This document shows, one piece after another, positions 1 through 64,000 of a DNA stretch of 64,000 nucleotides. A model generated the notes under the pieces. The model was not told the DNA's origin and made no database searches. It worked only from the letters and a program-made list of their open reading frames with translations. Source of the DNA: Nitrospirales bacterium (lineage in GTDB: Bacteria > Nitrospirota > Nitrospiria > Nitrospirales > UBA8639); NCBI GenBank assembly GCA_965205795.1, contig OZ242177.1, forward strand, positions 2,440,424 to 2,504,423, given 5' to 3'. Every line of letters begins with the position of its first letter. Within the stretch, counting starts at the first letter, position 1. Both the position numbers and the translations under genes were made by a program.

Positions 1-3000
1 GGCGGCGCCGTGGTTACGACCATTGACACCGCCACCGGCCGGTTGTTCCTGCCCGGCGGCTTTGAGGCCCAGACCGGCGCCACCGGCCGCACCAACGGGC
101 AGGGCGCCTACGGCAGCTTCACCCTGACCACTGCCGGCATGTGGACCTATGCGCTGAATAACGCCGACCCCGCCACCAACGCGCTGGCGGGCGGCGTCCG
201 GGTCACCGACGTCTTTACGGCGGTCGCCGCCGACGCCAGCGAGACGCAAGCCGTCACCATCACCGTCATTGGCGCCAATGATGCGCCCACAGCGAACGCC
301 GGGGCTGATCAACCCGCCGTGCTTGTCGACGCCACGGTCACGCTGGAGGGCCGCGGCACCGACCCGGATGCCGGCGACAGCATTGTCGCCTACACTTGGA
401 CACAAAGCGGCGACCCGGCGGTAATCTTGAGCGCCGCCGATGTGGCCCGGCCGACCTTCACGGCGCCGGACGTGACGAGCGTCACCGCACTGACCTTTGC
501 CCTGGTGGTCAGCGACGGCGAAGCGGCTTCACCCGCCGACACCGTCACCATCACCGTCTACCCGGCCATCACCGGCGACACGACCGGCATGGTCATGGAA
601 GGCGGCGTCGCGGTTGCGACCATTGACACCGCTACCGGCCGGTTGACCCATGCCATCGGCGCCTTTGTGGCCCAGCCCGGCGCCGACCCCACCAACGGGC
701 AGGGCGCCTACGGCCGCTTCACCCTGGCCACCGGCGGGGCGTGGACCTATACGCTGGATAACGAGGCCCCCGACACCGACGCGCTCCCCGCCGGCGTGAC
801 GATGACCGATGTCTTTACGGCGGTGTCCAGCCTGAACGCGGCCGTGACGCAAGCCGTCACCATCACCGTCACCGGCGCCAATGACGCGCCGACCGCCGAC
901 GCGGGCGCCGCCCGGACAGTGCCCCAGAGCGCCACGGTAGCGCTGATTGGCCGCGGCACCGACCCGGACACCGGCGACCAGGCGGCGCTGGGCTATGTGT
1001 GGACACAGACCGGTGGCACGTCGACCGTCACCCTCGTCCCCGGGGTGGCCCCCACCACAGTCACCTTCCTCGCGCCCACGGTGACGGTGGACACGCCCCT
1101 GACGTTCACGCTGACCGTGACCGACCCGCAGCCGGTCGCGGCCACCGACACCGACACCGTGATCGTCACCATTAGCGCGGCCCTCACGGCCTCCACCATC
1201 ACCGGCAGCATTTTCGGCGGCATCACCGAAGACGCGGATCCGAACACCGCCATCGGCACGCTGACCGTGACCACGCTGCAGATCGTGGGTGATGACGTCA
1301 TCGGCACGTTCCAGCCGCAGACCGTGCCGGGCGTCTACGGCGCCTTCACGCTGGCCGACACCGGCGCGTGGACCTACACGCTGAACAACGAGAACATCGT
1401 CATCAACGCCCTGCCCCTGGGCTCCGAGGAGCTCCAGGAGACCTTCCGGGTGGTGGCCGTCGACAGCACCCCGGCGACCGTGACCATCTTTATCAACGGC
1501 GCCAATGACCTCCCCACCGTCGAGGTTGAGCCGACGCAGACCGTTGGCGAAGAGACTATTGTGACGCTGACCGGCACCGGCGATGACGTGGATACCGGCG
1601 ATCGGGACCGGTTGCGCTATCAGTGGACACAGATTGATTTTGAGCTTGACGACCCCACGGCTGTCACGCGGCAGGTCACGCTGACCAACGCGGACACCGC
1701 CACCGCCACCTTTACCGCGCCCAATTTCCTTGAGGCCACGCCCCTGACGTTCACGCTGACCGTCGCCGATGTGCATAGCGCCGGCGTCACCGCCACGGTG
1801 ATCGTCACCGTGACCGCGGTCAACGACCCGGTGCTCATCGGCGGCGAGCAGACCGGGAGCGTCACCGAAGACGGGGCGGTGTTGGCGCGGGGCGAGTTGA
1901 CGATCCGTGATCCGGATGGCCACGACCGCTTCCGGGCCCAGACGGCCGTGGCCGGCGACTATGGCACGCTGGCGAGCCTGACCGCCACCGGCGTGTGGGT
2001 CTACGCGCTGAACAACAATGACGAAGTCGTTCAGAACCTGCGGGCGACCGACGTGCGCACCGAGACCTTCACCGTGCGGGCCGAGGACAACACCCCCGTG
2101 AGCCTCACCATCACCGTCAACGGCGCCAATGACGCGCCGACTGCCACGGGCCGGTTCCGGAGCGACGCGCTGATCATTGACAGCAGCGTCATTGGGGGGA
2201 GTGCGGTGAGTCTGGTCGGCACGGGCACCGACCGGGATACCGGCGAGCAGGCGGCGTTGCGCTATGCATGGACGCAAGTCAGCGGCCAGCCCGACGTCCT
2301 GCTGACCGCCGCGGACACCGCCACCGCCACCTTCACCGCGCCGACGTTGCCCGCGGAGACGACGCTGGTGTTTGAGTTGACCGTCACCGACGGGCAAGAG
2401 GCCACCGCCATCGCGCCGGTGCGTGTGCTCGTGCGGGCGGCGGACAACATCCCGGCGGTCTTTGGCGGGACGCGCGGCCGCGTCACCGAAGACGGGGAGC
2501 CGACCGCCACCGCCACGCTGACCGTGACTGACGCGGATGGCTCTGATACTACCGTCCAGGCGCAGGCCGACCTTGTCGGCGCCTATGGCAGGTTCACGCT
2601 GAACGCCGCGACCAGCGTGTGGAGCTACACACTGAATAACGACACGGACGCCGTCCAGGGCCTGGCCGCGAACGAGGCCGTGCGTGAACGGTTTGCCGTG
2701 CGGGCCGCGGACGGCACGCGGGGCGAGGTCGTCATCACCGTCCACGGCGCCAACGACGCGCCGACCGTGACCGCCACCAGCGAGCCGGTGACGGCCAATG
2801 AGGGCACCACCGTGACCCTGACCGGCACCGGCACCGACCCGGATCGGCAAGACCGGTTGCGCTATCAGTGGACGCCGCCCGCCGGCATCCCGACCAGTGG
2901 GCTTCTCCCCTCCGCGACCTCGGCCCGCATCACCTTTGCCGTGCCGGATTTGCCCGGAGACACGGCCCTGGCGTTCACGCTGACCGTCACCGACCCGTCG

Positions 3001-4344
3001 GAGGTCACCGCCACCGCCATGGTCACCGTCATGGTCACGGCGGAGAACGATGCGGCGACCTTTGGCGGCACCCACACCGGCACGGTCATTGAAAACGACA
3101 GTGCGAACAGTGTGGCCGCGGGCGTGTTGACCGTCAGAGACCCGGACACCCTCCACCGCTTCACGGCGCAGACCGACCTGGCCGGCACCTACGGCCGGTT
3201 CACCCTGTTCGCCGACGGGCGCTGGCGGTACGTCCTGGACAACGACGATCTGGACACCAACGCGCTGGCCGCGAGTGAGGAAGCCACCGACCGCTTCCCG
3301 GTGGCGACCGAGGACGGCACGACGTTCCAGCTGACGACCACGGATGGCCCGACGCCCACGGAAGTGAACGCGGTAGTCATCACCATCACCGGCTTCAATG
3401 ACCCGCCGACCGTCGACGCCGGGGCCGCGCAGTTTGTGCCGACCGGGTCGACGGTGACGCTGGCCGGCATCGTCAGCGACCCGGAGAGTAGCGCGGAGGC
3501 CCTGACCTATGCGTGGACGCAAACCGGCGCCCCCGCCGTCGACCTTGCCGGCGACGCCACCGCCACCGCCACCTTCCTCGCGCCCCCGGTCCCCGCGGAC
3601 ACGCCCCTGATGTTCACGCTGACCGTCACCGCGCCGGCCGCGCCAGGCGAGACAAGCGAGACAGGGGCGCAGCAGACGGTCATGGACACGGTGATCGTCA
3701 CGGTGCGCCCGTTCAGCGTCCCGGCGGTCTTTAGCGGCGAGCGCACCGGCGGCGTCACCGAAGACGCGCCCACGAACACCGCCACCGCCACGTTGACCGT
3801 GACAGACGCGGATGGCCCGAATCTTGCCCGGGCGCAGACCGACATCGCCGGCACCTATGGCCGCTTCAGCATCATCGACACCGGCGAGTGGATGTACACC
3901 CTGAACAATGCCGTTGACGCGCCGACCCAGGCGCTGGCGGCGAATCAACAGGTCACCGAGCGGTTCACGGTTCAGGCCGTTGACGGCACGCCGGATGCGG
4001 TGGTCATCACCGTCACCGGCGCCAACGACGCGCCGAGCGCGACCATTGACGCGCCGGCGCAGAGCGCCAACGAGGGTACCCTCGTGACCTTGAGTGGCCG
4101 CGGCCGCGACCCGGACATGCTCGACCGGCTGGCCTATCAGTGGACGCAGCGTGGCGGCACGGCCGAGACCCGCGTCACGCTGGACAACATCGAATCCCCC
4201 GACAACACGATGACCATGGTCAGCTTCACCGCGCCCGAGATCACCGCAGCCACGCCCCTGACCTTTGAGTTGACCGTCACCGACCCGACCGCCAGCGACC
4301 CGGCCACGGCCACGGCGCTGGTGACCGTCCACCCGGTTCCGGGC
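1..4344 (+). repeat. VCBS / PKD-like di-domain array (7 units, period ~0.60-0.65 kb; left edge cut by window)
   Basis: The VCBS motif ...YG.FTL...G.WTYTL.N......AL..G....D.F.......VTITVTGANDAPTA alternates with the PKD-like motif ...V.L.G.GTDPD.GD.L.Y.WTQ.GG..V.L....A.A.FTAP.....T.L.F.LTVTD. Y.WTQ landmarks lie at 401, 994, 1618, 2263, 2863, 3508 and 4134. Confidence 0.85.
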
Positions 4345-7300
4345 ATCAGCAGCCTGGCGTTGACCTCGGATGCCGGTGATGGCGTCTACGCGATTGGCGA
4401 CGAGATTGAAGCGACCGTCACCTTCGACGCCCCGGTCATCGTCACCGGCCAGCCGCGGCTGGCGCTGGGTGTGGGCCCGGCGACGCGGCGCCAGGCGGTG
4501 GCGGTCCCCACCGACAGCAGCAGCAGGACGACGCTGGCCTTCCGCTACACGGTTCGCGCCGGCGACCTTGACGAGGACGGCGTGAGTATCGGCGCCAATG
4601 CGCTGAGCCACACCGCCGACAGCACGATACGAGCCGCGGCCGATGCTGCCGCCGACGCGCTGATCACGCATACCGTGACGCTGGCCGCGAGCACCGCCCA
4701 TCGCGTAGACGGCATTGCCCCGGCGGTGGACCGTGTCACCCTCAGCACCACCGGCCCGTACATTGCGGGCGACGCGATTGCGTTGACGGCAACCTTCATC
4801 GACGCCGTCACGGTAATCGGCACACCGCAGATCGCGCTGACGGTGGGCCCGGCGACGCGCCAGGCGGTCTACGCCAGCGCCCGCAGCACCCCCACGGCGC
4901 TGGTCTTCAGCTACACCGTCGTCGCCGGCGACCACGATGCCGATGGGGTTGACGTCGCACCCAATGCCCTGGCGGCCAACAGCGGCCTCATCGGGGACGC
5001 CGCCGGCAACGACGCGGTGCTTGCCCACGATGCCATTGCTGCGGTCAACGCCAATCGAGTGGACACCGCCGTGCCGACAGTCAGCACGGCAACAATTAAT
5101 GGCAGGACACTGACACTGACCTACGAGGAGGCGCTCGACGCCCGCTCGGTACCGGCACCGTCAGCCTACACGCTGACGCTGGCGTCGGGCACTGCCCCGA
5201 CGGTGGCCAACGGCGGCGTGGCCATCAGCGGGCAGACCGTGACGCTCACGCTGAGCACCGCCGTGGTATCGACCGATGCTGGCGTGACGCTGACCTACAC
5301 CGCCGGGCCGACTCCGCTGCTGGATCTGGCCGGCAACCAGGCCGACGACTTCAGTGACCAGGCGGTGACCAACACCACGCCCGATCTGGTTCCGGATTTC
5401 GAAGCGCAGACCATTGCCGCCCAGACCTACACCGTGGGCACCGACGTTGGCACCGTCACATTGCCGGCAGCCACCGGCGGCAACGGCGAATTGGCCTATA
5501 CCCTCAGTCCGGCCCTGCCCAGCGGCCTGGTCTATACCGCCGCCGCGCGCACCATCAGCGGCACCCCGGCACAAGGCACCGAGCAGGCCGCCACCCCCTA
5601 CACCTACACCGTGCGCGACCGCGACGGCAGCAGTGCGACCCTTGGCTTCACCCTCCGCATCACCCCGGCGGTCATGACCGGCGCGGTGACGGAAGACGAC
5701 CCCGACGCCACCACCACGAGCGGCCGGTTGACCCTGCCCGGCGGCTTTGCTCCCCAGACCGACGCGGTGGGCGCCTACGGCACCTTTGCTCTGGCTGGCA
5801 CCGGCGCCTGGACCTACACGCTGGACAACAACGATGTCGACACCGACGCGCTGGCCGCCGGCGACACGATGACCGATGTCTTGACCGCGGTCTCCACCGC
5901 CGACAGCACGGTGACGCGCCAGGTCACCATCACCGTCACCGGCGCCGATGACTCGGCGGAGATCAGCGGCACGACCACCGGCGGCGTCACCGAAAACGAT
6001 GCCACCACCACCGCCAGCGGCACGCTGACAATCATTGACCCGGACAGTGCCACCACCTTCACGTCGCTTGACGAAGCATCCGGCACCTACGGCGCCTTCA
6101 GGCTGGCCGCGAGCGGCGCGTGGACCTACACCCTGGACAACAGGGATGTGGACACCAACGCGCTGGCCGTGGACAGCGAGGGCACCGACGTGTTCACCGT
6201 GGTGACGAGCGACGCCACCACGGCACTCGTGACCCTCACCATCACCGGCGCCAACGACGCGCCGACCGCCGCGGCCGGCGTCGACCAGACCGTCACCGAA
6301 GGCGACCAGGTCGCGCTGAGCGGCACGGGCACCGACCCGGATACCGGGGATCTCCTGACCTATGCGTGGACGCAGACCGGCGACACAGCCGAGCCCGCAG
6401 TCGCGCTGACCAATGCCAACACCGCCCGCGCCACCTTCACTGCGCCGCAATTACCCGCGCCCGTGACGCTGACGTTCGTGCTGACCGTCACCGACCAACA
6501 GACCGCCCTCCACACCGACATGGTGCTGGTCACCGTTCAGGCGCAGAACACCCCGGCCGCCATCAGTGGTGCGCGCATGGGCAGCATCACCGAAAACGCG
6601 GCCCCGAACACGGTCACCGGCATGCTGACGGTCATGGATGAGGATGGCGACGACGACTTCAGCGCCGGGGTGATCTCCAGCATCTCCGACCCCGACCCCG
6701 CCCCGCTGGCCGACACCGGCGCCGGGTCGGTCTCCGGCGTCTACGGCAGCTTCACGCTGGCCGTCACCGGCGCGTGGACCTATACGTTGGACAACGGCAA
6801 CTCCAACACCGACGGGCTGATTGAGGACGCCACCATCACCGAGACGTTCCGGGTACAGACGGCCGACGGCACCGCGGAGACGGTCGTGCTCACCATCACC
6901 GGCGTCAATGACGCGCCGACTGCCATTGCCGGCGCCGCGCGCACCGTGTCCGAAGCCAGCCAGGTAACCCTGACCGGTCGCGGCGAAGACCCGGATGCCG
7001 GCGACACCCTGACGTATGCGTGGACACAGGTCGGCGGCACCCCCACGGTCACCCTCGCCGACGCCGCCACCACCCGCGCCAGCTTCATCACGCCGCAGTT
7101 GACCGCGTCGACCGCCCTGATGTTTGCGCTGACCGTGACCGACTCGTCCGGGGCCAGGGGCATCGACACCGTGGTGCTCACCGTCCAGGCCGACAACGAC
7201 CCGGCGGTGGTCACCGGCGTGCGCACCGGCATCGTCACCGAAAACGCGGCCCCGGACGAGAGCGCCGCCACCGGCCAGCTGACCGCGACCGATCCGGACA

Positions 7301-10300
7301 GCCTTGACACGTTCCAGATGCAGACGGACGTCCCCGGCACCTACGGCACATTCCGTGTGACGATGCAGGGCGCGTGGACCTACAGGCTGGACAATGCGCT
7401 CGCGGCCACCAATGCGCTGGCGGCGAACCAGTCCTCGGTGCAAGACCGCTTTGAGGTGCAGACCGCGGACGGCACCGCAGACGCGGTGGTCATCACCGTC
7501 CTCGGCGCCAATGACGGGCCGACCGCCATGGTCGTCGGCGACGACCGGAGCGTTAACGAGGGTGCCGCGGTCACGCTGACCGGCACCGGCACCGACCCGG
7601 ACACCGACGACGTGCTGACCTATCGGTGGGCGCAGACCGGTGGCACGCCCCGGATTGCGCTGACTGGCGCGAACACCAACAGCGTCAGCTTCACCGCGCC
7701 GCCGTTAGCCGCGGACGCGCCCTTTGTGTTCACGCTGACCGTCACCGACTCGGCGCTCGCCACCGCCACCGACACGGTGACCGTGACCATCCAGGCGGAT
7801 GATGACGCGGCGACCATCACCGGCGATCGCACCGGGGCGGTCACCGAAGACGCGGATACGAACACGGTCATCGGCCAGTTGACCGCGGACGACCCGGATG
7901 GCGACAACCGCTTCCGGCCCCAGCGCGCCCTCGGCACCGCCGGCCAGTACGGCACCTTCAGGCTGACCGCGACCGGGGTGTGGACCTACATGCTGGACAA
8001 CCGCGCGGACGTCACCAACGCCCTGGCCGAGGGGGCCAGCGTCACCGACACCTTCATGGTCGCCGCCAGCGACGGCACCTCGGACGCAGTGGTGATCACC
8101 GTCCTCGGCGCCAATGACGCGCCGACCGCCACGGCCGGCGCCTCGCGGACTGTGCCCGAAGCCGCGCAGGTGACCCTGGTGGCCACCGCGACGGACCCGG
8201 ATAGCGGGGATCTCCTGACCTATGCGTGGACGCAGCTCGCCGGCACGCCGGAGCAGATGCTGGACGGCGCCGACACCGCCAATGCCCGCTTCACCACGCC
8301 CCAGCTTGAGGACACCACCGCCTTCACATTCACGCTGACGGTCACCGACCGGGCGCGCGCCCAGGCCACCGACCGGGTCATCATCACCGTGGATGCGGAC
8401 AACGACGCGGCCACGATCACCGGCACCCCCACCGGCGCCGTCACCGAAGCCGGCATTGAAGCCGGCACCGAGACCGCAGGCGTGCCGACGACCACCGGCA
8501 CGTTGACCGTGACCGACCCGGATGGCGACGACCGCTTCCAGCCCCAGCCCGCCCCCGGCACCGCAGGCCGCTACGGCGCCTTGAGCCTGACCGAGAACGG
8601 GGTTTGGAGCTATACCCTGAGCAATGCGGATAGTGCCACCAACGCCCTGCTCGCGGACGCCATCGTCACCGACACCTTCCCGGTGGCCGCCAGTGACGGC
8701 ACCGAGGTGTTGGTGGCGATCACGGTCACCGGCGCCAATGACGCGCCGACCGCGAACGCCGGGGCGGATCAGGCCGACATTCCTGAAGGGCAACGGGTGT
8801 TCCTGTCTGGCAGCGGGAGCGACCCGGACACCGGCGATGCGGCGGCCCTGACGTATGTCTGGACGCAGACCGGCGGCACGCCCACCGTCACGTTCACCCC
8901 CTCCGGGCCGTCCAGAGTCGTCCGCTTCACCGCGCCGCAGTTGCTCGCAGGGACGACCCTGATGTTTGAGCTGACCGTGACCGACCCGCAGGGCGCCGTG
9001 GACCGTGATCAGGTGCAGGTCACCATTGAGGCGGACAATGACCCGGCGACCATCACTGGCCAGCGCACCGGAGCAGTCACCGAAGACGCGGAGCCCACCG
9101 TCACCGGCCAGCTGACCGTGACCGACCCGGATGGCGCCGACCGCTTTGCGGCGGTGGCGGATCCCGGCCTCGTCGGCATCTACGGCACCTTCACCCTGAC
9201 CGCCGAAGGCGCGTGGACCTACACCCTGGACAATGATGACCCGGACACCGATGCTCTGGCCGCGAATGCCCGCGTCACCGACACGTTCACCGTGCGGCCT
9301 GAGGACCCGGGTGACTCCGCCGAGGTCACCATCACCATCCTCGGCGCCAATGATCCGGCGGTCGCGATCACCGGCACGACCACCGGCGCCGTGACCGCCG
9401 TGCCCGCAGCCACGGCGCCCACCCTCGCCACCGGCACGCTGGTGGTGGATGATCCGGACGGCCCCGGCACCGTCCAGGCGCGGGAGACCCCCGGCGCCTA
9501 CGGCGTCTTCCGCGTGACCGCGCAAGGGGTCTGGACCTACACCCTGACCAACGCGGACCGGGACACCATCGCCCTGGCCGCGGGTGACACCGCGACCGAC
9601 GCGTTCACCGTGACCGCGGACGACGGCATCACGACGACCGTCACCATCACCGTCACCGGCGCGGATGACCCGGTGACGATCACCGGCACGACCACCGGCG
9701 CCGTGACCGAAGGCCGGGGGCCGTTCAGCGGCACATTGACCGCGACCGACCCGGACAGCCCGGCGTCCCCCGTCCTGTTCCAGGCATTGACCACCCCCGG
9801 CCTCTACGGCATCTTCAACGTGACCGCAGGCGGCGTCTGGCGCTACACGCTGGACAATGAGAATGCGGCCACCAACGCCCTGGCCGCGGACGCCACCGAG
9901 ACCGAACGTTTCACCGTGACCGCGGACGGCATCACGACGACCGTCACCATCACCGTCACCGGCGCCGATGACCCGTCCACCATCGGTGGTGATCTCACCG
10001 GCGCCGTCACCGACAACGCACCGACGACCACCGACAGCGGCACGCTGACCGCGATCGACCTGGACGAGATAGAGACCCCCATCGAATTCGTCCCCATCAC
10101 GTTCACGCTGCCGACGAGTGCCGGTGGCCCCTACGGCGGTGCCGGTGCCGGCATCTACGGCGGCCTGGAGCTGGCCGCGACCGGCGAGTGGACCTACACC
10201 CTGAACCTGGACGATGCGGACACCATCGCCCTGGCCGCGGGCGCCACCGCCACCGACGCGTTCACTGTCATGGCGACGAATGCCGGCGTTGACGATGCCG

Positions 10301-13300
10301 TGCTCACCATCACCATCACCGGCGCCGACGACCCGGTGGTCTTCAGCGGGTTCACCGGCAGTACGACAGAAGACGAGTTCATCGGCGGATTCAACGAGCT
10401 CAGCGGCTTCTTGAGTGCGACGGACCCGGACGCCCCCGGATTGCGCTACACCTTCCGCCTCGCGCCCGGCGACTTCCAGGGCACCTACGGCACCTTCACC
10501 CTCAACGCCGGTGGCCTCCCCCGCTGGCGCTACCGGCTGGACAATACTGACGCGGACACCAACGCCCTGGCCGCAGGTGCCACCGTCACCGACACGTTCA
10601 GCGTGATGGTCGCCGATGAAGACGGCAACGACATCACCGATGTGACGCCAGCCGTCACCATCACCGTCACCGGCGCCAATGACGCGCCGACCGCCGAGGC
10701 GGGCGACGACCAGACCGTGCCCCGGGGCGCCATGGTGGCGCTGATTGGCCGCGGCAGCGACCCGGACACCGGCGATGCGGCGATGCTGACCTATGCGTGG
10801 ACGCAGACCGCCGGCACGCCGACCGTCACGCTCACCCCCGGAGCGGGCGACACCACGGTCACCTTTATCGCGGACCCGGTCACCGCGGACACGACCGTGA
10901 CGTTCACGCTGACCGTGACTGACCGGCAGGGCGCCATGGACACCGACACCGTGACAGTCGCCATTGATGCGGGCAGCATGGCCTCCACCATCACCGGCGA
11001 CCTGACCGGCACCGTCACCGAAGACGCGGAGCCGAACACCGCCACCGGCATGCTGACCGCGACGGCTGGGGACAACACCGTGCGCAATTTCGTGGCACAG
11101 ACCGTGCCGGGCACCTACGGCACCTTCATGCTGACCGCGACCAATAGCTGGACCTACACGCTGGACAACACACCGGGCAGCGCCACCGACGCCCTGCCGA
11201 TGGACAGCGCACGCATTGAGCAATTCCCGGTGGCGGCCATCGACAGCAGCACGGCGCTGGTGACCATCACGGTCAACGGCGCCAATGACGCGCCGACCGC
11301 CGATGCCGGCGACGCCGTCAGCGTGAACGAAGGCGATCCGGTCACGCTGGACGGCAGCGGCTCCAGCGACCCGGATAGCGGTGAGGGAACGGCCCTGACC
11401 TATCAGTGGACGCCGGTTGCCGGCACGCCGACCGTCACGCTCACCGATGCCGAGACCGCCACGCCCCGTTTCACCGCGCCCGCAGTAGACGAAGACGCGA
11501 TACTGACGTTCATACTGACGGTCACCGACCCGCAGCGCGTCACGGACACCGCCACGGTGGCCGTCACCGTGCGTGCGCTGCCGGTCGTCACCCTGGTGCT
11601 GACCCCGCCCGCGATCACCCAGAGCGGCGGCGTGAGCACCGTCACGGCCAGGCTGGACCAGGCCTCGTCCGCGCCGACCACGGTGACCGTCAGTGCGGCC
11701 CCGGTCAGCCCGGCGGTCGAGGGTGATTACCGCTTGAGTGACCCGTCGGTGCTGACCATTGCCGCCGGGGCGACCAGCAGCACCGGAACCGTCACCATCA
11801 CTGCCGTGAATCGCGGCAGCACGATACCCCGGCAGGTGACGGTGTCGGCCGTGGCCGTCAACGCCAATGGCATCACGCAACCGGACTCCCAAACCCTGAG
11901 CATTGCCGCCGTGGGTGATGGTGATGATGACGGCCTGCGTTTCGCGGACAGGGCGGTGAATCTGTTCTATCCGCTGGGCGTGCCGATCACCGCCACGACA
12001 TTGCCGCGGGAGGCCACCGACGACGCCGGGGCGCTGGCCTACACCCTGAGCCATTTGCACCTGTCCTTGAGCGAGTTAGGGCTGGCCTTTAACCCGGCCA
12101 CCCGCACCCTGACCGGCACGCCGATCCTGGCCGGCGTCGGCCATGAAGAGGATGACGCGGATCAGTTCGGGTTTGAGTTTGGCTATACGGTGACCGACGA
12201 GGCCGGGCGCACGGCTGAGCTGGAAGTGTTCATCACCATCTGCGCAGTCGGTGCGGTGCCGGCCGGCACCACCGAGTGCGCCCCGCCAGCCTACGTGCCC
12301 CTGGCGTTTACCGCCACCGTGGAGGCGCAGAGCTATCCGGTCAACACGGCCATCTCCTCGCTGACCCTGCCGGATGCCACCGGCGGCACCGGCGCCAGCC
12401 CCCGCCTGACCTATGTCTTGTCCCCGCTGCCCGCCGGGCTGGCCTTTGACCCGGCCACCCGCATCCTGACCGGCACGCCGACTGACCCCGGCGTCACCGG
12501 GCTGACGTATGCCGTCACCGACGCTGCGAGCGACCGGAGCTTCGCGCAAGCCTTTACCGTGACAGTGACCGGGCCGACGCTGGGCAGTCAGGGCGATCTG
12601 ACCTACCCTGCGTCCATCGCGATCACCCCGGTGACCCTGCCATCAGCCACCGGCGGCGCCGCGCCGCTGGTCTACACCCTGACCGGGCCAAATGGCGAGT
12701 CGCTGGCGACCGCCGTGCCCGGGCTGGTCTTTGCCCCGGCCCCGGCCGACCGCATCCTGTCCGGCACGCCGACCGTGGCGGGCCTGACCACGCTGACCTA
12801 CACGGTCACCGACAGCGCCACCCCGCCGGCCACCGACGTACAGACCTTTACCGTGACGGTGACCGGGGCGACGCTGGCCCGGCCGGCCGACATCACCACT
12901 CCGCCCGGCACGCCGTTCACCAGCAGCCCGTTCCCGGAGCTTCTGAATGCTGCCGGGCCGATCACCTACGCCGTGACCCGGCCGAACGGCCTCCTGTTAC
13001 CCACCGGCCTGACCTTTACCCCGACCACCCGCGTGCTGTCCGGCCAGGTGGCCGTGGGCGGTGTGACCATCCCGTTGGAATACAGCGCCACCTTCGGGGG
13101 CGGCAATCTCCGGCAGCCGTTTAACTTGCAGGTGACCGGGCCGAGGTTGCCGGGCGTCGACAACCAGCTCTACCTGGTGAACGTGGCCATTGAACCGCTG
13201 ACGCTGCCGCTGTCCCCCGGCGGCGGCACCGGCGCGGTGGGCTACGCCCTGACCGGGATGAACGCCGGGCCGGGCGCCGCCAACCTGCCCGCCGGCCTGA

Positions 13301-49300: not shown

Positions 49301-52300
49301 AAGACGATCCTCTGGCCGCCACGGCGAACGGTCAGTTGACCCTGGCCGGCGACTTTGTGGCCCAGACTGACGCCACTGCCACGACGGGTACCTACGGCAC
49401 CTTTGACCTGACCGCCGCCGGGGCGTGGACCTATATGCTGAATAACGACGACCCCGAGACCAACGCGCTGGCGGGCGGCACCCAGGTCACCGACGTCTTT
49501 ACCGCCGTCTCCGCCGACGACGCCAGCGAGACGCAAGCCGTCACCATCACCGTCACCGGGGCCAATGACGCGCCGACCGCGAATGCCGGGGCTGATCAAC
49601 CCGACGTGCTTGTCGGCGCCACGGTCACGCTGGACGGCCGCGGCAGCACCGACCCGGATACCGACGGCCGCATTGCCACCTATGCCTGGACGCAACGCGC
49701 CGGGCCGGAGGTAACCTTGAGCGCCACCAACGTGGCCCGGCCGACCTTCACGGCGCCGAGTAGTATGACGCGCGTCACCGCGCTGACCTTTGAGCTGATT
49801 GTCAACGACGGCAGTGTGGATTCCGCCGCCGACACCGTGACCATCATAACGATGCGGCCGTTGCCCGGACTTGTGCGGAACTTCACCGCCGCTCCTGCGG
49901 CTCGTGGTGGTCGTGTCATTTTGAGGTGGGAGGCGCCGGACAATGCGGTTGTGGCGGATGTAACCCACTACGAGCTGCAAAGTAAGGCAAGCAGTGCAAC
50001 AGCCTTTGAGCCTTTTGAAACACTCCCAGTTGGTAGCACCACCACGCAATTCGTTCTCCCCCGCAGGACATCCGTCACCTCCTTTGAATTTCGTATCAGA
50101 GCCTTGGCGGCGGGAGCGGTGGGTGACTGGGTGAGCACTGACGGCCCCAGTCCCGGCGCCTTGTTAAGCGTGAACACCCTTCTGGAGATCGCAGAGGGTG
50201 GCACGGCGACCTATACGGTGGTCTTGCAGACTGTGCCGACCGCTCCGGTCACAGTTGCGATCAGTAGCGACAATGACGATGTGACGGCGACAGGCCTCAC
50301 ATTCACGGTGGCGAATTGGAATATTCCGCAAGCGGTGATTGTCACCGCGGCGCAGGATGCTGATGGCTCTGATGATGTGGGTATTAGTCTCACGCACGTT
50401 TTTGATGGAGGCGGCTACAGAGGTGTGAGCGCGAGAGTGGATGTGAATGTGGTGGACGATGACCCGACCTTCGGCACTGCGACCATTGACGCCCAGATCT
50501 ACACCGTGGGCATGGACATCGGCAGCGTCATCCTGCCGACCGCCACCACCGGCACCGGCGCATTGACCTATACCCTGACCCCGCTGCCGGCCGGTCTGAC
50601 CCTGACCGACAACATGCTGTCCGGCATACCGGAGACGATGCAGGCGACGACCAACCTCACCTACACAGTGACGGACAGCGACGGCAACACCGACACCATT
50701 GGCTTCACCGTCACCATCAACGTCTCCCCGGGCATCACCGGCGACACTGTCGGCGTGGTCACGGAAGGCGGCGCCGCGGTTACGACCATTGATACCGCCA
50801 CCGGCCGGTTGTTCCTGCCCGGCGGCTTTGAGGCCCAGACCGGCGCCACCGGCCGCACCAACGGGCAGGGCGCCTACGGCAGCTTCACCCTGACCACCGC
50901 CGGCGTGTGGACCTATGCGCTGAATAACGCCGACCCCGACACCAACGAGCTGGCGGGCGGCGTCCGGGTCACCGACGTCTTTACCGCCGTTTCCGCCGAC
51001 GACGCCAGCGAGACGCAAGCCGTCACCATCACCGTCACCGGCGCCAATGATGCGCCGACCGCCGACGCGGGTGCCTCCCAGTCCGTGTTTGTCGGCGACA
51101 CGGTCACGCTGGCGGGCCGCGGCACCGACCCGGATACCGGCGACAGCATTGCCGCCTATGCCTGGACGCAAAGCGGCAGCCCGACGGTGATCTTGAGTGA
51201 CGCCACCGTGGCCCGGCCGACCTTCACGGCGCCGGACGTGATGAGCGCCACCACGCTGACCTTTGCGCTGGTGGTCAACGATGGCGAAGCGGATTCAGAC
51301 CGCGCCGACACCGTCACCATCACCGTCTTCCCGGGCATCACCGGCGACACGACCGGCATGGTCACAGAAGACGCGACCGTCACCACCGCGACCGGCGTGT
51401 TGGACAATCCCATCGGCGGCTTTGAGGCCCAGGCCGGCGCCTCCGACCGGGCCAACGGGCAGGGCGCCTACGGCCGCTTCACCCTGGTCACCGGCGGGGC
51501 GTGGACCTATACGCTGGATAACGCCGCCGCCGCCACCGACGCGCTGCCCGCCGGCGCCACGGTGACCGACATCTTTACCGCCGTCTCCAGCGAGAACCCG
51601 GGCGTGACGCAAGCCGTCACCATCACCGTCACCGGCGCCAATGACGCGCCGACCGCGCTGCCCGGCGACGACCGGACCGTGCCCCAGGAGGCCATGGTGA
51701 ATCTGAGCGGCCGCGGCACTGACCCGGACACCGGCGACCAGGCGGAGTTGACCTATGCGTGGACACAGACCGGTGGCACGCCGACCGTCACCCTCGCCCC
51801 CGCCCCCGGGGCCCCCGCCACCGGGGTCACCTTCACCGCGCCCATGGTGATGGATGACACGACCCTGACGTTCACGCTGACCGTGACCGACCGGCAGGGC
51901 GCCGCGGACACCGCCCCCGTGATGGTCACCATTGATGCGGACAGCACGGCCTCCGACATCACCGGCGACATTTTCGGTTTCGTCACCGAAGACGCGGAGA
52001 CCGCCACCGCCACCGGCATCCTGACCGTGACGGCCGGCGGCACCGTTGGCGAGTTCCAGGCGCAGCCGATGCAGCCGACGGATCCGCCGGTGGTCGGCGT
52101 CTACGGCACCTTCACCCTGGCCGCCACCGGCGCGTGGACCTACACGCTGGACAACGAGGACATCGACACCGACGCCCTGTCTCTGGGCCCCGAGGAGATC
52201 CAGGAGACCTTCCGGGTGGTGGCCGACGACATGGTCGGCACCCCGGTGACCGTGACCATCTTTATCAACGGCGCCAACGACCGCCCCACCGTCATGGTTG

Positions 52301-55300
52301 CGCCGACGCAGACCGTTGGCGAAGAGACCATTGTGACGCTGACCGGCACTGGCGATGACGTGGATGCCGGCGACATGTTGCGCTATCGGTGGACACAGAG
52401 CGATTTTGAGCTTGCCGACCCCACGGCTGTCACGCGGCAGGTCACGCTGACCAACGCGGACACCGCCACCGCCACCTTCACCGCGCCCAATTTCATCGAG
52501 CCCACGCCCCTGACGTTCACGCTGACCGTCGCCGATGTGCATAGCTCCGGCGTCACCGCCACGGTGATCGTCACCGTGACCGCGAACGACGACCCGGTGC
52601 GCATCGGCGGCGAGCAGACCGGCAGTGTCACCGAAGACGGGGCGACGTTGGCGCGGGGCGAGTTGACGATCCGTGATCCGGATGGCCACGACCGCTTCCG
52701 GGCCCAGACGGCCGTGGCCGGCGACTATGGCACGCTGGCGAGCCTGACCGCCCCCGGCGTGTGGGTCTACGTGCTGAACAACAATGACGATGTCGTGCAG
52801 AACCTGCGGGCGACCGACGTGCGCACCGAGACCTTTACCGTGGAGGCCGAGGACGACACCCGCGTGATCCTCACCATCACCGTCACCGGCGCCAATGACG
52901 CGCCGACCGCCACGGGCCGGTTCCGGAGCGACGCGGTGATCATTGACAGCAGCGTCACCGGGGGGAGTGCGGTGAGTCTGGTTGGCACGGGCACCGACCG
53001 GGATACCGGCGAGCAGGAAGCATTGCGCTATCAATGGAGGCAAGTCAGCGGCCAGCCCGACGTCACGCTGACCGACGCGGATATGGCCACCGCCACCTTC
53101 ACCGCGCCGTTGTTGCCCGCGGAGACGACGCTGGTGTTTGAGTTGACGGTCACCGACGGGCAAGCGGCCGCCATTGCGCCGGTGCGCGTGCCCGTGCGGG
53201 CGGCGGACAACAGCCCGGCGGTCTTTAGCGGGACGCGCGGCCGCGTCACCGAAGACGGGGAGCTGACCGCCACCGCCACGCTGACCGTGACCGACGCGGA
53301 CCCGGACGACCCGGAGACCATCCAGGCGCAGGACGACGACCTTGTCGGCACCTATGGCACGTTCACGCTGGACGCCGCGACCGGCGTGTGGAGCTACACA
53401 TTGAATAACGACCTGGGCGCCGTCCAGGGCCTGGCCGCGAACGAGGCCGTGGTTGAGCGGTTTGCCGTGCGGGCCGCGGACGGCACACGGGGCGAGGTCG
53501 TCATCACCGTCAACGGCGCCAACGACGCGCCGACCGCGACCGCCACCGGACCGGCGACGGCCGAGGAGGGTACCACCGTGACCCTGACTGGCACCGGCAG
53601 CGACCCGGATCGGCAAGACCGGTTGCGCTATCAGTGGACGCCGCCCGCCGGCATCCCGACCATCGGGCTTCTCCCCTCCGCGACCTCGGCCATCGTCACC
53701 TTTGTCGCGCCGGAGTTGATCGACGGCACGGATCTGGCGTTCACGCTGACCGTCACCGACCCGTCGGAGGTCACCGCCACCGCCACGGTCACCGTCATGG
53801 TCACGGCGGATGACGATGCGGCGACCTTTGGCGGCACCCGCACCGGCAGTGTCACCGAAAGCAGTGCCACCGAAAACAACGTGCAGAGGAGCCTGGCCTT
53901 TGGCCTGCTGACCGTCACCGACGCGGACGGCCCCAACCGCTTTGCGGCGCAGACCGGCGTGGCCGGCACCTACGGCACGTTCACCCTGTTCGCCACCGGG
54001 AACTGGCGGTACGATCTGGATAACGACCTTTCCGCCACCAATGCCCTGGCCGCGCCCGTTGCGGGCACCGCGCTGGCCACCGAGCGCTTCCTGGTGCGGC
54101 AGGCCACCGAGGACACCATCGGGGGCGCCGAGGACCCGGAGCGTGTGGTCATCACCATCACCGGCGTCAATGACGCGCCGACCGTCCTGGCTGGCGACGA
54201 CCGGATTGTGAGGGAGAACGTTGCGGTGACCCTGACCGGCACGGGCACCGACCCGGAGACCAGCGACACGGCGGCCCTGACCTATGCGTGGACGCAGACC
54301 GGCACGCCGACCGTCACGCTGACCAACGCGGACACCGCCACGGCCACCTTCACCGCGCCCGATTTGACCGAGGATATGCCTCTGACGTTTACGCTGACCG
54401 TGACCGACCCGCAGAGCGCCGAGGGCACGGATACGGTGGTTATCGTGGTGACCGCCCTCGTCAACAGACCGGCGATCATCAGCGGTGACCGGACCGGCAC
54501 CGTGACCGAAGACGCTCCCGCCACTGTCGCCAACGGCCAGCTGGAGGTGTTTGACTCGGACGGCGGCGACAGCACTGACGTCCAGTTACAGGGCGGCCCC
54601 CTCGGCCTCGGCACCTACGGCACCTTTGAGGTGGACACGGACGGCGAGTGGACCTATACGCTGGATAACGCCGACCCCGAGACCAACGCGCTGGCGGGCG
54701 GCGACCGGGGCACTGAGCGGTTCACGGTTGTGACCGGCGACGGCACCGAAGTGCTGGTGGCGATCACCGTCATCGGCGCCGATGATCTCCCGGAGGCGAT
54801 CACCGGCCAGACCACCGGCCGCGTCACCGAAGATGCCGTCGTGGTGGAGACCACCGGCATGCTGGCCGTGACCGACCCGGATGGTCCGGCGGGTGCTGCC
54901 GCGTTCCAGGCGCAGGGGAGCGTCGTGGGTATCTACGGCACGTTCACCCTGGCCGCGAATGGCGAGTGGACCTATACGCTGGATAACGCCGACCCCGAGA
55001 CCAACGCCCTGGCCGCGGACGCCACGGCGACGGACGTCTTTACGGCGGTCGCCGCTGACGACACCGGCCTGACGCAAGTGATCACCATCACCATCACCGG
55101 CGCCGCCGCCCCGGTGGTCGTCGGCGGCCAGCTCACCGGCAGTACGACGGAAGATGAGTTCACCGACGACGGATTCAACGAAATCAACGGCTTCTTGAGC
55201 GCGACGGACCCGGATAACCCCGGATTGAGATACACCTTCCGTCTCGCGCCCGGCGACTTCCAGGGCACCTACGGCACCTTCACCCTCGGCGGCGTTGGCC

Positions 55301-58300
55301 CCCCCCGCTGGCGCTACCGGCTGGACAATGCTGACCCGGACACCGACCTCCTGACCGCGGGTGAGACCGGCACCGACACGTTCACCTTGACGGTGGAAGA
55401 TGCAGACGGAACCCGCATCACCCTGCTCCAGGATGAAGACGGCAACGCCATAGACACGTTAGCCGTCACCATCACCATCGTCGGCACGGATGACCCGCCG
55501 ACGATCAGCGGCGCGCTCACCGGGGCGGTCACGGAAGACAGCGACGAAGACAGGACCACCGGCCTGCTGACCGTGACCGCCGTGGACAACGCTGATCTCG
55601 TCACCGCGTTTACTGAGCAGGCCGATGTCCCCGGCACCTACGGCAGCTTCACGCTGACCGAGGGCGGCGCGTGGACCTATACGCTGGATAACGCCGACCC
55701 CGAGACCAACGCGCTGGCCGCGGGCGTGACGAGGAGCGACGTCTTTACGGTCGTCTTCGCCGCCGACACCAGTGTGACGCAAGCCGTCACCATCACCGTC
55801 ACCGGGGCCAATGACGCGCCGACCGCCGACGCGGGTGCCTCCCAGTCCGTGTTTGTCGGCGACACGGTCACGCTGGACGGCCGCGGCGGCACCGACCCGG
55901 ATACCGGCGACAGCATTGCCGCCTACACCTGGACGCAAAGCGGCAGCCCGACGGTGACCTTGAGTGACGCCACCGTGGCCCGGCCGACCTTCACGGCGCC
56001 GGACGTGATGAGTGCCACCGCGCTGACCTTTGCGCTGGTGGTCAACGACGGCGAAGCGGATTCAGACCGCGCCGACACCGTCACCATCACCGTCTTCCCG
56101 GGCATCACCGGCGACACGACCGGCATGGTCACAGAAGACGCGACCGTCACCACCGCGACCGGCGTGTTGGACAATCCCATCGGCGGCTTTGAGGCCCAGG
56201 CCGGCGCCTCCGACCGGGCCAACGGGCAGGGCGCCTACGGCCGCTTCACCCTGGTCACCGGCGGGGCGTGGACCTATACGCTGGATAACGCCGCCGCCGC
56301 CACCGACGCGCTGCCCGCCGGCGCCACGGTGACCGACATCTTTACCGCCGTCTCCAATACGAACGCGGGCGTGACGCAAGCCGTCACCATCACCGTCACC
56401 GGCGCCAATGACGCGCCGACCGCGCTGCCCGGCGACGACCGGACCGTGCCCCAGGAGGCCATGGTGAATCTGAGCGGCCGCGGCACTGACCCGGACACCG
56501 GCGACCAGGCGGAGTTGACCTATGCGTGGACACAGACCGGTGGCACGCCGACCGTCACCCTCGCCCCCGCCCCCGGGGCCCCCGCCACCGGGGTCACCTT
56601 CACCGCGCCCATGGTGATGGATGACACGACCCTGACGTTCACGCTGACCGTGACCGACCGGCAGGGCGCCGCGGACACCGCCCCCGTGATGGTCACCATT
56701 GATGCGGACAGCACGGCCTCCGACATCACCGGCGACATTTTCGGTTTCGTCACCGAAGACGCGGAGACCGCCACCGCCACCGGCATCCTGACCGTGACGG
56801 CCGGCGGCACCGTTGGCGAGTTCCAGGCGCAGCCGATGCAGCCGACGGATCCGCCGGTGGTCGGCGTCTACGGCACCTTCACCCTGGCCGCCACCGGCGC
56901 GTGGACCTACACGCTGGACAACGAGGACATCGACACCGACGCCCTGTCTCTGGGCCCCGAGGAGATCCAGGAGACCTTCCGGGTGGTGGCCGACGACATG
57001 GTCGGCACCCCGGTGACCGTGACCATCTTTATCAACGGCGCCAACGACCGCCCCACCGTCATGGTTGCGCCGACGCAGACCGTTGGCGAAGAGACCATTG
57101 TGACGCTGACCGGCACTGGCGATGACGTGGATGCCGGCGACATGTTGCGCTATCGGTGGACACAGAGCGATTTTGAGCTTGCCGACCCCACGGCTGTCAC
57201 GCGGCAGGTCACGCTGACCAACGCGGACACCGCCACCGCCACCTTTACCGCGCCCAATTTCATCGAGCCCACGCCCCTGACCTTCACGCTGACCGTCGCC
57301 GATGTGCATAGCTCCGGCGTCACCGCCACGGTGATCGTCACCGTGGACGCGGACAATGACCCGGTACTCATCGGCGGCGAGCAGACCGGCAGCGTCACCG
57401 AAGACGGGGCGGTGTTGGCGCGGGGCGAGTTGACGATCCGTGATCCGGATGGCCACGACCGCTTCCGGGCCCAGACGGCCGTGGCCGGCGCCTATGGCAC
57501 GCTGGCGAGCCTGACCGCCCCCGGCGTGTGGGTCTACGCGCTGAACAACAATGACGAAGTCGTGCAGAACCTGCGGGCGACCGACGTGCGCACCGAGACC
57601 TTCACCGTGCAGGCCGAGGACAACACCCCCGTGATCCTCACCATCACCGTCACCGGCGCCAATGACGCGCCGACCGCCACGGGCCGGTTCCGGAGCGACG
57701 CGCTGATCATTGACAGCAGCGTCATTGGGGGGAGTGCGGTGAGTCTGGTCGGCACGGGCACCGACCGGGATACCGGCGAGCAGGAAGCATTGCGCTATCA
57801 ATGGAGGCAAGTCAGCGGCCAGCCCGACGTCCTGCTGACCGCCGCGGACACCGCCACCGCCACCTTCACCGCGCCGTTGTTGCCCGCGGAGACGACGCTG
57901 GTGTTTGAGTTGACGGTCACCGACGGGCAAGCGGCCGCCATTGCGCCGGTGCGCGTGCCCGTGCGGGCGGCGGACAACAGCCCGGCGGTCTTTAGCGGGA
58001 CGCGCGGCCGCGTCACCGAAGACGGGGAGCTGACCGCCACCGCCACGCTGACCGTGACCGACGCGGACCCGGACGACCCGGAGACCATCCAGGCGCAGGA
58101 CGACGACCTTGTCGGCGCCTATGGCACGTTCACGCTGAACGCCGCGACCGGCGTGTGGAGCTACACATTGAATAACGACCTGGGCGCCGTCCAGGGCCTG
58201 GCCGCGAACGAGGCCGTGGTTGAGCGGTTTGCCGTGCGGGCCGCGGACGGCACGCGGGGCGAGGTCGTCATCACCGTCAACGGCGCCAACGACGCGCCGA

Positions 58301-61300
58301 CCGCGACCGCCACCGGACCGGCGACGGCCGAGGAGGGTACCACCGTGACCCTGACCGGCACCGGCACCGACCCGGATCGGCAAGACCGGTTGCGCTATCA
58401 GTGGACGCCGCCCGCCGGCATCCCGACCATCGGGCTTCTCCCCTCCGCGACCTCGGCCCGCATCACCTTTGTCGCGCCGGAGTTGATCGACGGCACGGAT
58501 CTGACGTTCACGCTGACCGTCACCGACCCGTCGGAGGTCACCGCCACCGCCATGGTCACCGTCATGGTCACGGCGGAGAACGATGCGGCGGTCTTTGGCG
58601 GCACCCACACCGGCAGTGTCACCGAAAGCAGTGCCACCGAAAACAACGCGCAGAGGAGCCTGGCCTTTGGCCTGCTGACCGTCACCGACTCGGACGGCCC
58701 CAACCGCTTTGCGGCGCAGACCGGCGTGGCCGGCACCTACGGCACGTTCACCCTGTTCGCCGCCGGGAACTGGCGGTACGATCTGGATAACGACCTTTCC
58801 GCCACCAATGCCCTGGCCGCGCCCGTTGCGGGCACCGACCTGGCCACCGAGAGCTTCCCGGTGCAGCAGGCCACCGAGGGCGCCACCGAGGGCACCGTTG
58901 ACCCGGCGGGTGTGGTCATCACCATCACCGGCGTCAATGACGCGCCGACCGTCCTGGCTGGCGATGACCGGATTGTGAGGGAGAACGTTGCGGTGACCCT
59001 GACCGGCACGGGCACCGACCCGGAGACCAGCGACACGGCGGCCCTGACCTATGCGTGGACGCAGACCGGCGGCACGCCGACCGTCACGCTGACCAACGCG
59101 GACACCGCCACGGCCACCTTCACCGCGCCCGATTTGACCGCGAACACAGACCTGACGTTTACGCTGACCGTGACCGACCCGCAGAGCGCCGAGGGCACGG
59201 ATACGGTGGTCATCGTGGTGACCGCCCTCGTCAACAGACCGGCGATCATCAGCGGTGACCGGACCGGCACCGTGACCGAAGACGCTCCCGCCACTGTCGC
59301 CAACGGCCAGCTGGAGGTGTTTGACTCGGACGGCGGCGACAGCACTGACGTCCAGTTACAGGGCGGCCCCCTCGGCCTCGGCACCTACGGCACCTTTGAG
59401 GTGGACACGGACGGCGAGTGGACCTATACGCTGGATAACGCCGACCCCGAGACCAACGTGCTGGCGGGCGGCGACCGGGGCACTGAGCGGTTCACGGTTG
59501 TGACCGGCGACGGCACCGAAGTGCTGGTGGCGATCACCGTCATCGGCGCCGATGATCTCCCGGAGGCGATCACCGGCCAGACCACCGGCCGCGTCACCGA
59601 AGATGCCGACGTGGTGGAGACCACCGGTACGCTGGCCGTGACCGACCCGGATGGTCCGGCGGGTGCTGCCGCGTTCCAGGCGCAGGGGCGCGTCGTGGGT
59701 ATCTACGGCACGTTCACCCTGGCCGCGAATGGCGAATGGACCTATACGCTGGATAACGCCGACCCCGAGACCAACGCCCTGGCCGCGGACGCCACGGCGA
59801 CGGACGTCTTTACGGCGGTCGCCGCTGACGACACCACCCTGACGCAAGTGATCACCATCACCATCACCGGCGCCGCCGCCCCGGTGGTCGTCGGCGGCCA
59901 GCTCACCGGCAGTACGACGGAAGATGAGTTCACCGACGACGGATTCAACGAAATCAACGGCTTCTTGAGCGCGACGGACCCGGATAACCCCGGATTGAGA
60001 TACACCTTCCGTCTCGCGCCCGGCGACTTCCAGGGCACCTACGGCACCTTCACCCTCGGCGGCGTTGGCCCCCCCCGCTGGCGCTACCGGCTGGACAATG
60101 CTGACCCGGACACCGACCTCCTGACCGCGGGTGAGACCGGCACCGACACGTTCACCTTGACGGTGGAAGATGCAGACGGAACCCGCATCACCCTGCTCCA
60201 GGATGAAGACGGAAACGCCATAGACACGTTGGCCGTCACCATCACCATCGTCGGCGCCAATGACGCGCCGACCGCCGACGCGGGCAACGCCCAGACCGTG
60301 CCCCGGAACGCCATGGTGAATCTGATCGGTAGCGGCACCGACACGGAAACCGGCGATGCGGCGGCGCTGACCTATGCGTGGACGCAGATCGACATCACGC
60401 CCGGCGTCACGCCCGGCGTCACGCTCGACCCGACCGGGCTCGCCTCATCGGTCACCTTCATAGCACCCCCGGTCACCGAGGACACGCCCCTGACGTTTGA
60501 GCTGACCGTGACCGACCCGCAGGGCGCCACGGGCACCGACACCGTGCGCATCACCATTGATGCGGACCGCACGGCGTCCATCATCAGCGGCGACTTTGCC
60601 GGCACCGTCACCGAAGACGTGGAGCCGAACACCGCCACCGGCATGCTGACCGCGACGGCCGAGGACACCATGCGCGATTTCGTGCCCCAGACCGTGCCGG
60701 GCACCTACGGCAGCTTCATGCTGGCCGCCACTGGCACGTGGACCTACACGCTGGACAACACGCCGGGCAGCGCCACCGACGCTCTGCCGATGGACAGCGC
60801 ACGCACTGAGCAATTCCCGGTGGCGGACATTGACAGCAGCCCGGCGCTGGTGAACATCACGGTCACCGGCGCCAATGACCCGCCGACCGCCGATGCCGGC
60901 AACGCCTTCAGCGTTGACGAAGGCGATCCGGTCACGCTGGACGGCAGCGGCTCCAGCGACCCGGATGTCGACGAGGGAATGGCCCTGACCTATCAGTGGA
61001 CGCCGGTCGCCGGCACGCCGACCGTCACGCTCACTGATGCCGATACCGCCACGCCCGGCTTCACCGCGCCCGCAGTAGACGAGGACGCGATCCTGACATT
61101 CATACTGACGGTCACCGACCCGCAGCGCGTCACGGACACCGCCACGGTGGCCGTCACCGTGCGTGCGCTGCCGGTCGTCACTCTGGTGCTGACCCCGCCC
61201 GCGATCACCCAGAGCGGCGGCGTGAGCACCGTCACGGCCAGGCTGGACCAGGCCTCGTCCGCGCCGACCACGGTGACCGTCAGTGCGGCCCCGGTCAGCC

Positions 61301-64000: not shown

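Follow-up and report, generated by a model that had tools for sequence, protein, structure and literature searches.

Can a bacterial chromosome carry a single gene so large that 64 kb of it contain neither end, and what would such a gene be for? The question is raised by contig OZ242177.1 of a Nitrospirales bacterium (GenBank assembly GCA_965205795.1), in which positions 2,440,424 to 2,504,423 of the forward strand (64,000 nucleotides; the window, numbered here from 1) are occupied by one open reading frame (ORF). The original prediction, made from the letters of the DNA, proposed a giant gene extending past the window and coding for a chain of VCBS, PKD, He_PIG, Calx-beta, FN3 and SwmB-type modules, possibly a Ca-dependent surface fibre for adhesion. 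We are highly confident that the gene is real; the window would be an inner stretch of it, the frame is intact over more than 64 kb, and the encoded protein is above 2 MDa.

The stop-codon map of frame +1 (nucleotides 1..64000, + strand) contains 0 stops in 21,333 codons, where ~434 are predicted from base composition alone; the remaining five frames have from 49 to 1,256 stops each in the same window. The observed open frame is far beyond chance, and the claim of one uninterrupted ORF exceeding the window was upheld. The GC content by codon position in this frame is 62.5/55.6/86.3%, and the 86% at third positions (GC3) is the usual coding-frame signature for a high-GC organism. Every 1,000-aa tile of the translation is matched by Pfam and NCBIfam domains. 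The window part of the product has a mass of 2.17 MDa and is very acidic, with its isoelectric point at 4.05 and a net charge near -1,940. A single ORF of more than 21,333 aa belongs to the 'large' class of bacterial proteins (at least 10,000 aa), and the relatives suggest a full gene size of ~90-100 kb.

The antisense frame 2 (- strand) has 49 stops only and open runs of up to 4.6 kb (e.g., 58841-63469, 51926-56293 and 32201-36418). These stretches are shadow ORFs typical of very high GC3, which gene callers could mis-call.

The domain map, built with local iterated hidden Markov models (HMMs) and resolved for overlaps, contains 176 domains: 76 Cadherin_4, 55 PKD, 31 He_PIG, 6 Calx-beta, 4 SWM and 4 FN3. 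We estimate that ~28 more modules lack a family (roughly 115-140 aa each, in four recurrent classes), so that the product is predicted to consist of about 200 tandem small beta-sandwich modules. Permissive Pfam scans of all family-less spacers gave nothing significant. The main building unit is the Cadherin_4-PKD di-domain of ~200 aa. Cadherin_4 (PF17803, up to 167 bits) and VCBS_repeat TIGR01965 (up to 343 bits, cutoff 15.5) are one module, and the K319L-like PKD corresponds to PF22352, with Big_9 matching those same modules. He_PIG (PF05345), Calx-beta (PF03160) and fn3 (PF00041) were also matched. The profile search against Pfam and TIGRFAM found every family that had been named, and the predicted module list is confirmed in full. 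The four copies of SWM_repeat (PF13753) score 42-48 bits against a cutoff of 27, indicating domain sharing and not orthology or function. In the window the local scan detected no signal peptide, no barrel and no copy of the head module described below for the relatives; there is no transmembrane helix (maximum hydropathy 1.97), and no enzyme fold or catalytic domain was detected.

Relatives were sought in GTDB-representative genomes, JGI metagenomes, ENA contigs and protein libraries. The contig of the window is in neither of the first two collections. The longest entries in the two protein libraries are apparently of ~2.45 and ~7.6 kaa (thousand residues), and the giant proteins themselves are absent there. 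The nearest DNA is the 357-kb contig ctg78484_14x_l of ENA ERZ25069326, with 95-96% nucleotide identity to window segments, which stand there in another order. It has adjacent same-strand calls of 21,589 + 1,696 + 5,760 aa, 29,045 aa together. The frame changes between them (+1, then back, at nt ~9920-10060 and ~14990-15040 of the examined part) coincide with 1-nt indels relative to the window copies, and part of these indels fall in short homopolymers, for example of C or G. Either errors left in the assembly at 14x coverage or a recent breakage of the gene would account for the changes.

The nearest classified genome is a metagenome-assembled genome (MAG) of Candidatus Poriferihabitaceae (Gammaproteobacteria, Arenicellales). 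Four loci sampled from its record CBDBJR010000002.1 share a single open frame between 43,865 and a point past 143,312 (at least 99 kb), with 61-67% amino acid identity to the window over codon alignments of ~1,800 and ~3,400 aa. Further family members were found in a second Poriferihabitaceae chromosome (OZ243042.1), a Nitrospirales chromosome (OZ243044.1) and two more contigs of the same ENA sample. Comparable assemblies were made from PacBio HiFi reads of sponge holobionts with metaMDBG (PMC12859430). Judging by these relatives, the gene most likely comes from a sponge-symbiont bacterium, and by similarity to them it would be placed in a gammaproteobacterium near Candidatus Poriferihabitaceae.

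Is the length real? Exact repeats of at least 100 bp cover 53% of the window, and the longest identical run is 1,460 nt. The duplicated segments are 545-11592 and 20399-31467 (11 kb, 97% identity), 38295-47248 and 51309-60268 (9 kb, 93%), 50869-55502 and 55633-60272 (4.6 kb, 97%), 11581-15365 and 32812-36566 (92%), and 32812-35647 and 61171-64000 (95%). Tandem Repeats Finder reported nothing with a period of up to 500 at score 200, because the repeats are diverged and of protein-module scale. Such repeat content can be assembled by long accurate reads only, and the copy number is that of the assembly.

A shorter repeat gene, over-expanded or chimerically joined during assembly, could leave the same picture, and the frame breaks in related low-coverage contigs fit this explanation together with the extent of exact repetition and the long identical runs. 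A further contig of the ENA sample, the 79-kb 'circular' one that is nearly all giant-gene calls, resembles a repeat-induced circle. However, no large copy pair is identical (82-97%), the copies are offset by multiples of 3 throughout, and in six well-aligned pairs each of the 67 indels between internal copies has a length divisible by 3, so that the frame is kept at every junction and indel. The differences between copies are strongly clustered (variance/mean ~25), with 14-24% divergent patches beside the identical runs; this is the mosaic expected of gene conversion between repeats and not of read errors. Unique segments are interspersed among the repeats, and chromosome-scale records that were assembled independently contain same-family ORFs whose lengths range from 22 kb to at least 99 kb. 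Even halving the copy number would leave more than 10,000 codons. We consider it unlikely that the length is partly an assembly artefact.

The contig flagged as circular (ctg77936_5x_c, 79,309 bp, 5x; examined at 11832-33991) consists almost entirely of three consecutive giant-gene calls of 16,855 + 719 + 7,292 aa, the last of which reaches the contig end. Two origins are conceivable, an assembly circle induced by repeats or a small replicon made up almost wholly of a single gene. Sequence identity excludes both this contig and ctg78484_14x_l as the source of the window. In OZ243044.1 a large homologous ORF seems to span the point where the circular record closes. Its open parts, 13 kb reaching the final base and 7.5 kb counted from base 1, are one or two bases out of frame at the junction.

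Is the frame under selection? The ratio of nonsynonymous to synonymous substitution rates (dN/dS) is 0.75-0.97 for paralogous copies, 0.73-1.06 against the 95-96% identical ENA locus and ~0.9 against the Poriferihabitaceae orthologue at a dS of only 0.25-0.34; these are rough NG86-type values, uncalibrated against housekeeping genes, in which the strong GC3 bias lowers dS and gene conversion confounds pairs. The differences between copies are spread evenly across codon positions. Among 1,315 substitutions between copies (five pairs), ~20 new stops are expected without selection and 0 were seen (P ~3e-9); ~27 Lys-creating changes are expected in the same set and 0 were seen (P ~3e-12).

The composition of the product follows the same pattern. 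The window encodes 6 Lys residues (0.03%) at 3 unique positions, where 486 are predicted from position-specific base frequencies; ordinary genes of related genomes have 3.1-3.8% Lys. Arg is retained at 3.2%, and His stands at 0.29%. None of the 783 amino acid differences between copies involves Lys, Cys or Trp, while Arg takes part in 78 and His in 9. The Lys depletion is common to all giant homologues, including the Nitrospirales one, and was found in 47 of 268 relatives collected. Residue turnover is near-neutral within a strictly preserved frame: selection guards against interruptions and against Lys and Cys, and it hardly constrains single residues.

A repeat that expanded recently, is open yet without function or in decay, and is not translated into a single protein would agree with the near-neutral dN/dS in paralogous, near-orthologous and orthologous comparisons, with the even distribution over codon positions and with the splitting of the near-identical ENA locus by 1-nt indels. 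We regard it as very unlikely. The stops and Lys codons expected among the substitutions are missing, every indel is in frame, the peculiar composition is conserved across the family and across phyla, and the ORF stays open over at least 99 kb in a relative as diverged as the Poriferihabitaceae one.

How could such a chain leave the cell? The giant ORF of CBDBJR010000002.1 starts with a classical Sec signal peptide (MLKRLITLFLLLSALAPASASA, followed by Q), and then comes a head module of ~240 aa. Two complete proteins, of 4,202 and 4,857 aa, share this head behind their signal peptides (E-values 5e-40 and 4e-29), and each combines a Lys-poor passenger with an autotransporter barrel at the C-terminus. 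The Nitrospirales homologue has PF03797 at its end (33 bits vs cutoff 26). One Poriferihabitaceae chromosome carries both a 1.8-kaa paralogue with signal peptide and barrel and a fully open 22-kb ORF (at least 7,321 aa, start not reached) that runs straight into a barrel (E-value 1.5e-81). Among the 268 relatives an autotransporter barrel is present in 53 and C-terminal RTX repeats in 6, a ratio of ~9; the barrels are C-terminal PF03797 domains ending in an aromatic residue.

The 8 Cys of the 21,333 residues in the window are all found in 4 pairs spaced by 12 or 28 residues. Autotransporter passengers tolerate closely spaced disulfides only (PMC3546941), and the close pairing in the window fits this rule. 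The passenger is built of Ig-like/Calx-beta/PKD beta-sandwiches, so the beta-helix that is typical of type Va autotransporters, though not obligatory, is absent.

According to these relatives, the best-supported model is a Sec-exported, Ca-binding beta-sandwich fibre anchored by a type Va barrel, to which we give a probability of about 0.58; the type Va route as such we consider somewhat better than an even bet. Several observations weigh against this model. Neither end of the window gene lies within the 64 kb, and the barrel and the signal peptide are known from relatives alone. The search with the barrel profile returned no barrel protein with a passenger more than 60% identical to the window (best 58%). 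The near-identical ENA locus has two frame breaks, and the CBDBJR010000002.1 ORF reaches at least 33,149 codons only if the two gaps between sampled loci (62,223-72,807 and 95,022-110,217) are also open. The head module is internal in contig ctg73463_2x_l of ENA ERZ25069326 (nt ~4436-5282), after He_PIG and without a signal peptide, which weakens the conclusions based on the head. A dN/dS of ~0.73-1.06 could also be read as weak function. Finally, no autotransporter on record exceeds BigE with its 10,429 aa (PMC3419190), and 21-33 kaa would be without precedent for a passenger. The internal position of the head suggests, in addition, that the giant ORFs may have arisen by in-frame fusion of gene-sized units.

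Some details of these relatives are recorded here as observed. The head module has no Pfam family. The CBDBJR010000002.1 ORF is immediately preceded, at nt 2131-3378 of the fetched locus, by an IS481-like transposase (rve, rve_3, HTH_32). Two further sequences were set aside: a fragmented ~6.6-kaa gene ending in a barrel (L014) has only ~72% nucleotide identity to the window, in isolated modules, and the signal-peptide flag of the protein P0160, set by a regular expression, was a false positive on an internal fragment. A rve transposase is encoded just downstream of the L014 barrel.

A different export route, as in LapA, SiiE and MpIBP, would dispense with the signal peptide: one-step export by a type I secretion system (T1SS) through a C-terminal RTX/T1SS signal, with an N-terminal plug held in TolC. 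Giant adhesins of the T1SS kind typically contain VCBS/Cadherin_4, Calx-beta and Ig-like repeats, and the acidic, Cys-poor composition fits them as well. The BapA/Bap/LapF model NF045619 gave partial, sub-threshold matches (22-39 bits vs cutoff 180), a distant homologue of Kordiimonadaceae (29% identity) ends in GGxGxD repeats, and the six relatives with C-terminal RTX motifs point the same way. T1SS substrates lack a classical Sec signal peptide. The orthologous giant ORF, in contrast, begins with one, the family-level relatives end in barrels, and the 21,333 aa of the window, a span that excludes the C-terminus of the gene, contain 0 RTX motifs (GGxGxD). The type I route is therefore a minority possibility, and the analogy to LapA and SiiE drawn in the original prediction is not supported: the orthologue has a Sec signal peptide, and barrels exceed RTX repeats in the relatives. 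The likeness to the T1SS RTX adhesins (LapA, SiiE, MpIBP, BapA) is that of giant acidic repetitive fibres with Ca-binding Ig-like/VCBS/Calx-beta modules and a role in adhesion; the lack of RTX in the window, the Sec signal peptide of the orthologue and the barrels of the relatives set our gene apart.

For the type Va model, the following steps are proposed. The Sec signal peptide would deliver the chain to the periplasm, where a C-terminal 12-stranded autotransporter barrel would insert into the outer membrane. The passenger would then be threaded outward from the C- to the N-terminus, and the Ig-like modules would fold outside one by one, probably stabilized by Ca2+. The outcome would be a cell-anchored fibre of ~0.7-1.4 um; the window part alone would be ~0.7-0.9 um long with our assumed 3.5-4.5 nm per module. 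Such a fibre may let the cell attach to host cells, to other microbes or inside the sponge matrix. Segments duplicated in frame, together with gene conversion, would enlarge and homogenize the gene itself.

A Ca-binding acidic surface fibre is our best functional reading. The general functional reading of the original prediction holds; the Ca dependence and the adhesive role, like the secretion route, are what we infer. A SwmB-like motility or S-layer-type surface protein, and not an adhesin, would account for the four SWM_repeat modules, yet these are only 4 of ~200 modules and the cadherin-like and PKD units dominate. The relatives are sponge symbionts and not swimming cyanobacteria, and we consider this function highly improbable. 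SwmB of marine Synechococcus has 10,791 aa and shares SWM_repeat PF13753 and VCBS-type repeats with the window; lineage and lifestyle differ, and nothing points to motility. The comparison to SwmB as a motility protein, made previously, was not retained in view of the four SWM_repeat copies.

Giant repetitive surface proteins are already known as a kind. We found no paper on this module family or on giant single-ORF fibres in Poriferihabitaceae or other sponge symbionts, in agreement with the earlier statement that the module mixture is not a described family. The relatives of the window gene resemble type Va autotransporters in the Sec signal peptide, the Cys-poor acidic passenger and the C-terminal PF03797 barrel. 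The window differs from them, and from BigE, in an Ig-like beta-sandwich passenger in place of a beta-helix and in the near absence of Lys, and its barrel is predicted from relatives. The BigE passenger is beta-helical (PMC3419190). The window is at least 2 times longer than BigE, and its relative possibly ~3 times.

The type Ve (inverse) autotransporters, such as intimin and invasin, also have passengers of tandem Ig-like domains, sometimes with a lectin-like cap, and sequential Ig folding is thought to drive their secretion (PMC6555100). In contrast to them, the topology is reversed in the relatives of the window, which have a C-terminal PF03797 barrel, and the proteins are larger by one to two orders of magnitude. 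In the size class the window gene is comparable to the giants known from Chlorobium chlorochromatii (36,805 aa) and from Omnitrophota (at least 30,000 aa), in a scheme that defines 'large' as at least 10,000 aa and 'giant' as at least 30,000 aa (bioRxiv 10.1101/2023.11.21.568195). Their presumed role is cell-cell contact, in bacteria that live as epibionts or with a host. The Omnitrophota proteins, unlike the window, have many enzymatic domains, while the window is purely beta-sandwich, and the lineage is unrelated. In a survey of huge proteins, signal peptides were almost limited to those below 20,000 aa (PMC11573180); the giant orthologue of the window, in contrast, does have one.

In sponge symbionts, 'attachment' genes with cadherin and FN3 domains are over-represented and have spread by lateral transfer (PMC8163846). 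The domain types, the ecology and the cross-phylum spread (here, the Nitrospirales homologue) are the same as in our family. The genes of that study are of ordinary size and come from short-read MAGs; it describes neither a giant single-ORF form nor an anchoring by barrels. We tentatively propose, at rather less than even odds, a broader view: that the family includes the largest autotransporter passenger by a factor of 2-3 (2-3.5 MDa, ~1 um, Ig-like, Lys/Cys-free, Sec plus type Va), that it is spread across sponge-symbiont phyla (Arenicellales, Nitrospirales), and that it may have grown by in-frame fusion and duplication in a near-neutral way, with selection acting almost only on the open frame and on Lys exclusion.

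Type V secretion is generally regarded as a route for passengers of 1-3 kaa. If the barrel anchoring is true, a type V system would move more than 20,000 residues across the periplasm and the outer membrane without ATP, which would be a stringent test of folding-driven or charge-driven ratchet models. The fibre would be a concrete, very large surface structure shared by unrelated sponge symbionts, one that short-read MAGs could not assemble, and a candidate for how symbionts hold position in, or get recognized by, the sponge host. The selection pattern is unusual in combining neutral-like residue turnover with absolute exclusion of stops, frameshifts, Lys and Cys. If the broader view holds, the Lys exclusion would imply a further constraint from the secretion route or the sponge environment, e.g., amine-directed cross-linking or host recognition.

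The order of modules along the + strand reflects the large duplications. The window opens with 7 Cadherin_4(VCBS)-PKD di-domain units, each ~200 aa/600 nt, at 4..4329 (PF17803, PF22352, PF17963; TIGR01965 299 bits; local HMM map). The first SWM_repeat, assigned by Pfam and the local map, lies at 5059..5304, and the others at 15034-15273, 24934-25179 and 36223-36474. A Cadherin_4/PKD array of 19 domains, including a run of five Cadherin_4, follows at 5650..11571 within the 11-kb segment 545-11592. The second large-segment copy, at 20401..31446, consists of Cadherin_4/PKD arrays with the SWM module at 24934-25179 and a He_PIG at 25333-25536. The array at 38284..47103 has 28 domains in internal ~4.7-kb units (38262-42477 and 43014-47259, 91% identity), and the one at 50695..61161 has 33; it contains the 97% identical pair 50869-55502/55633-60272 and is paralogous to 38295-47248 at 93%.

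Between these arrays are the other module types. He_PIG forms an array of 9 copies at 11998..14652 and paralogous arrays at 33229-35850 (9 copies) and 61588-63909 (8 copies, truncated where the window stops), with PF05345 E-values over the arrays of 9e-50, 7e-47 and 1e-21. FN3 and Calx-beta alternate in the block 17923..20157 (fn3, PF00041, at 17923-18174 and 19234-19482; Calx-beta, PF03160, at 18553-18861 and 19849-20157), where the spacers are family-less modules of ~125 aa. Calx-beta pairs occur at 31846..32805 (31846-32148 and 32518-32805) and, as a second pair, at 47641-47943 and 48316-48603, with PF03160 E-values of 3e-23 and 8e-22 and partial matches of TIGR00845 on the CBD region.

The longest run without a family match is a clade-specific stretch of 565 aa (residues 5092-5656, 15274..16968, + strand), single-copy in the window except for its last ~90 aa. 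It has no Pfam match at E<=1, and 8 homologues were found among 5.8e9 proteins. The AlphaFold (AF2) model is all-beta in four blocks, modelled as four beta-sandwich modules, with a mean pLDDT (predicted local distance difference test) of 65. According to a Foldseek search against the PDB, it matches only Ig-like/Calx-beta strings: integrin legs, PrgB, the CBD12 of NCX1/CALX, antigen I/II and titin. A hidden enzyme or toxin domain in this stretch was considered and rejected after the modelling and the fold search. On visual inspection only, it looks like the segment after the N-terminal head of the CBDBJR010000002.1 orthologue.

A protein of 5,760 aa (P0221), the length of the third call of ctg78484_14x_l, was rejected as an unrelated leucine-rich repeat (LRR) protein. 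Its LRR blocks alternate with Calx-like modules, it has normal Lys and Cys contents and it matches the window only through the Calx/Ig-like modules; it is a large protein of the sponge-metagenome type.

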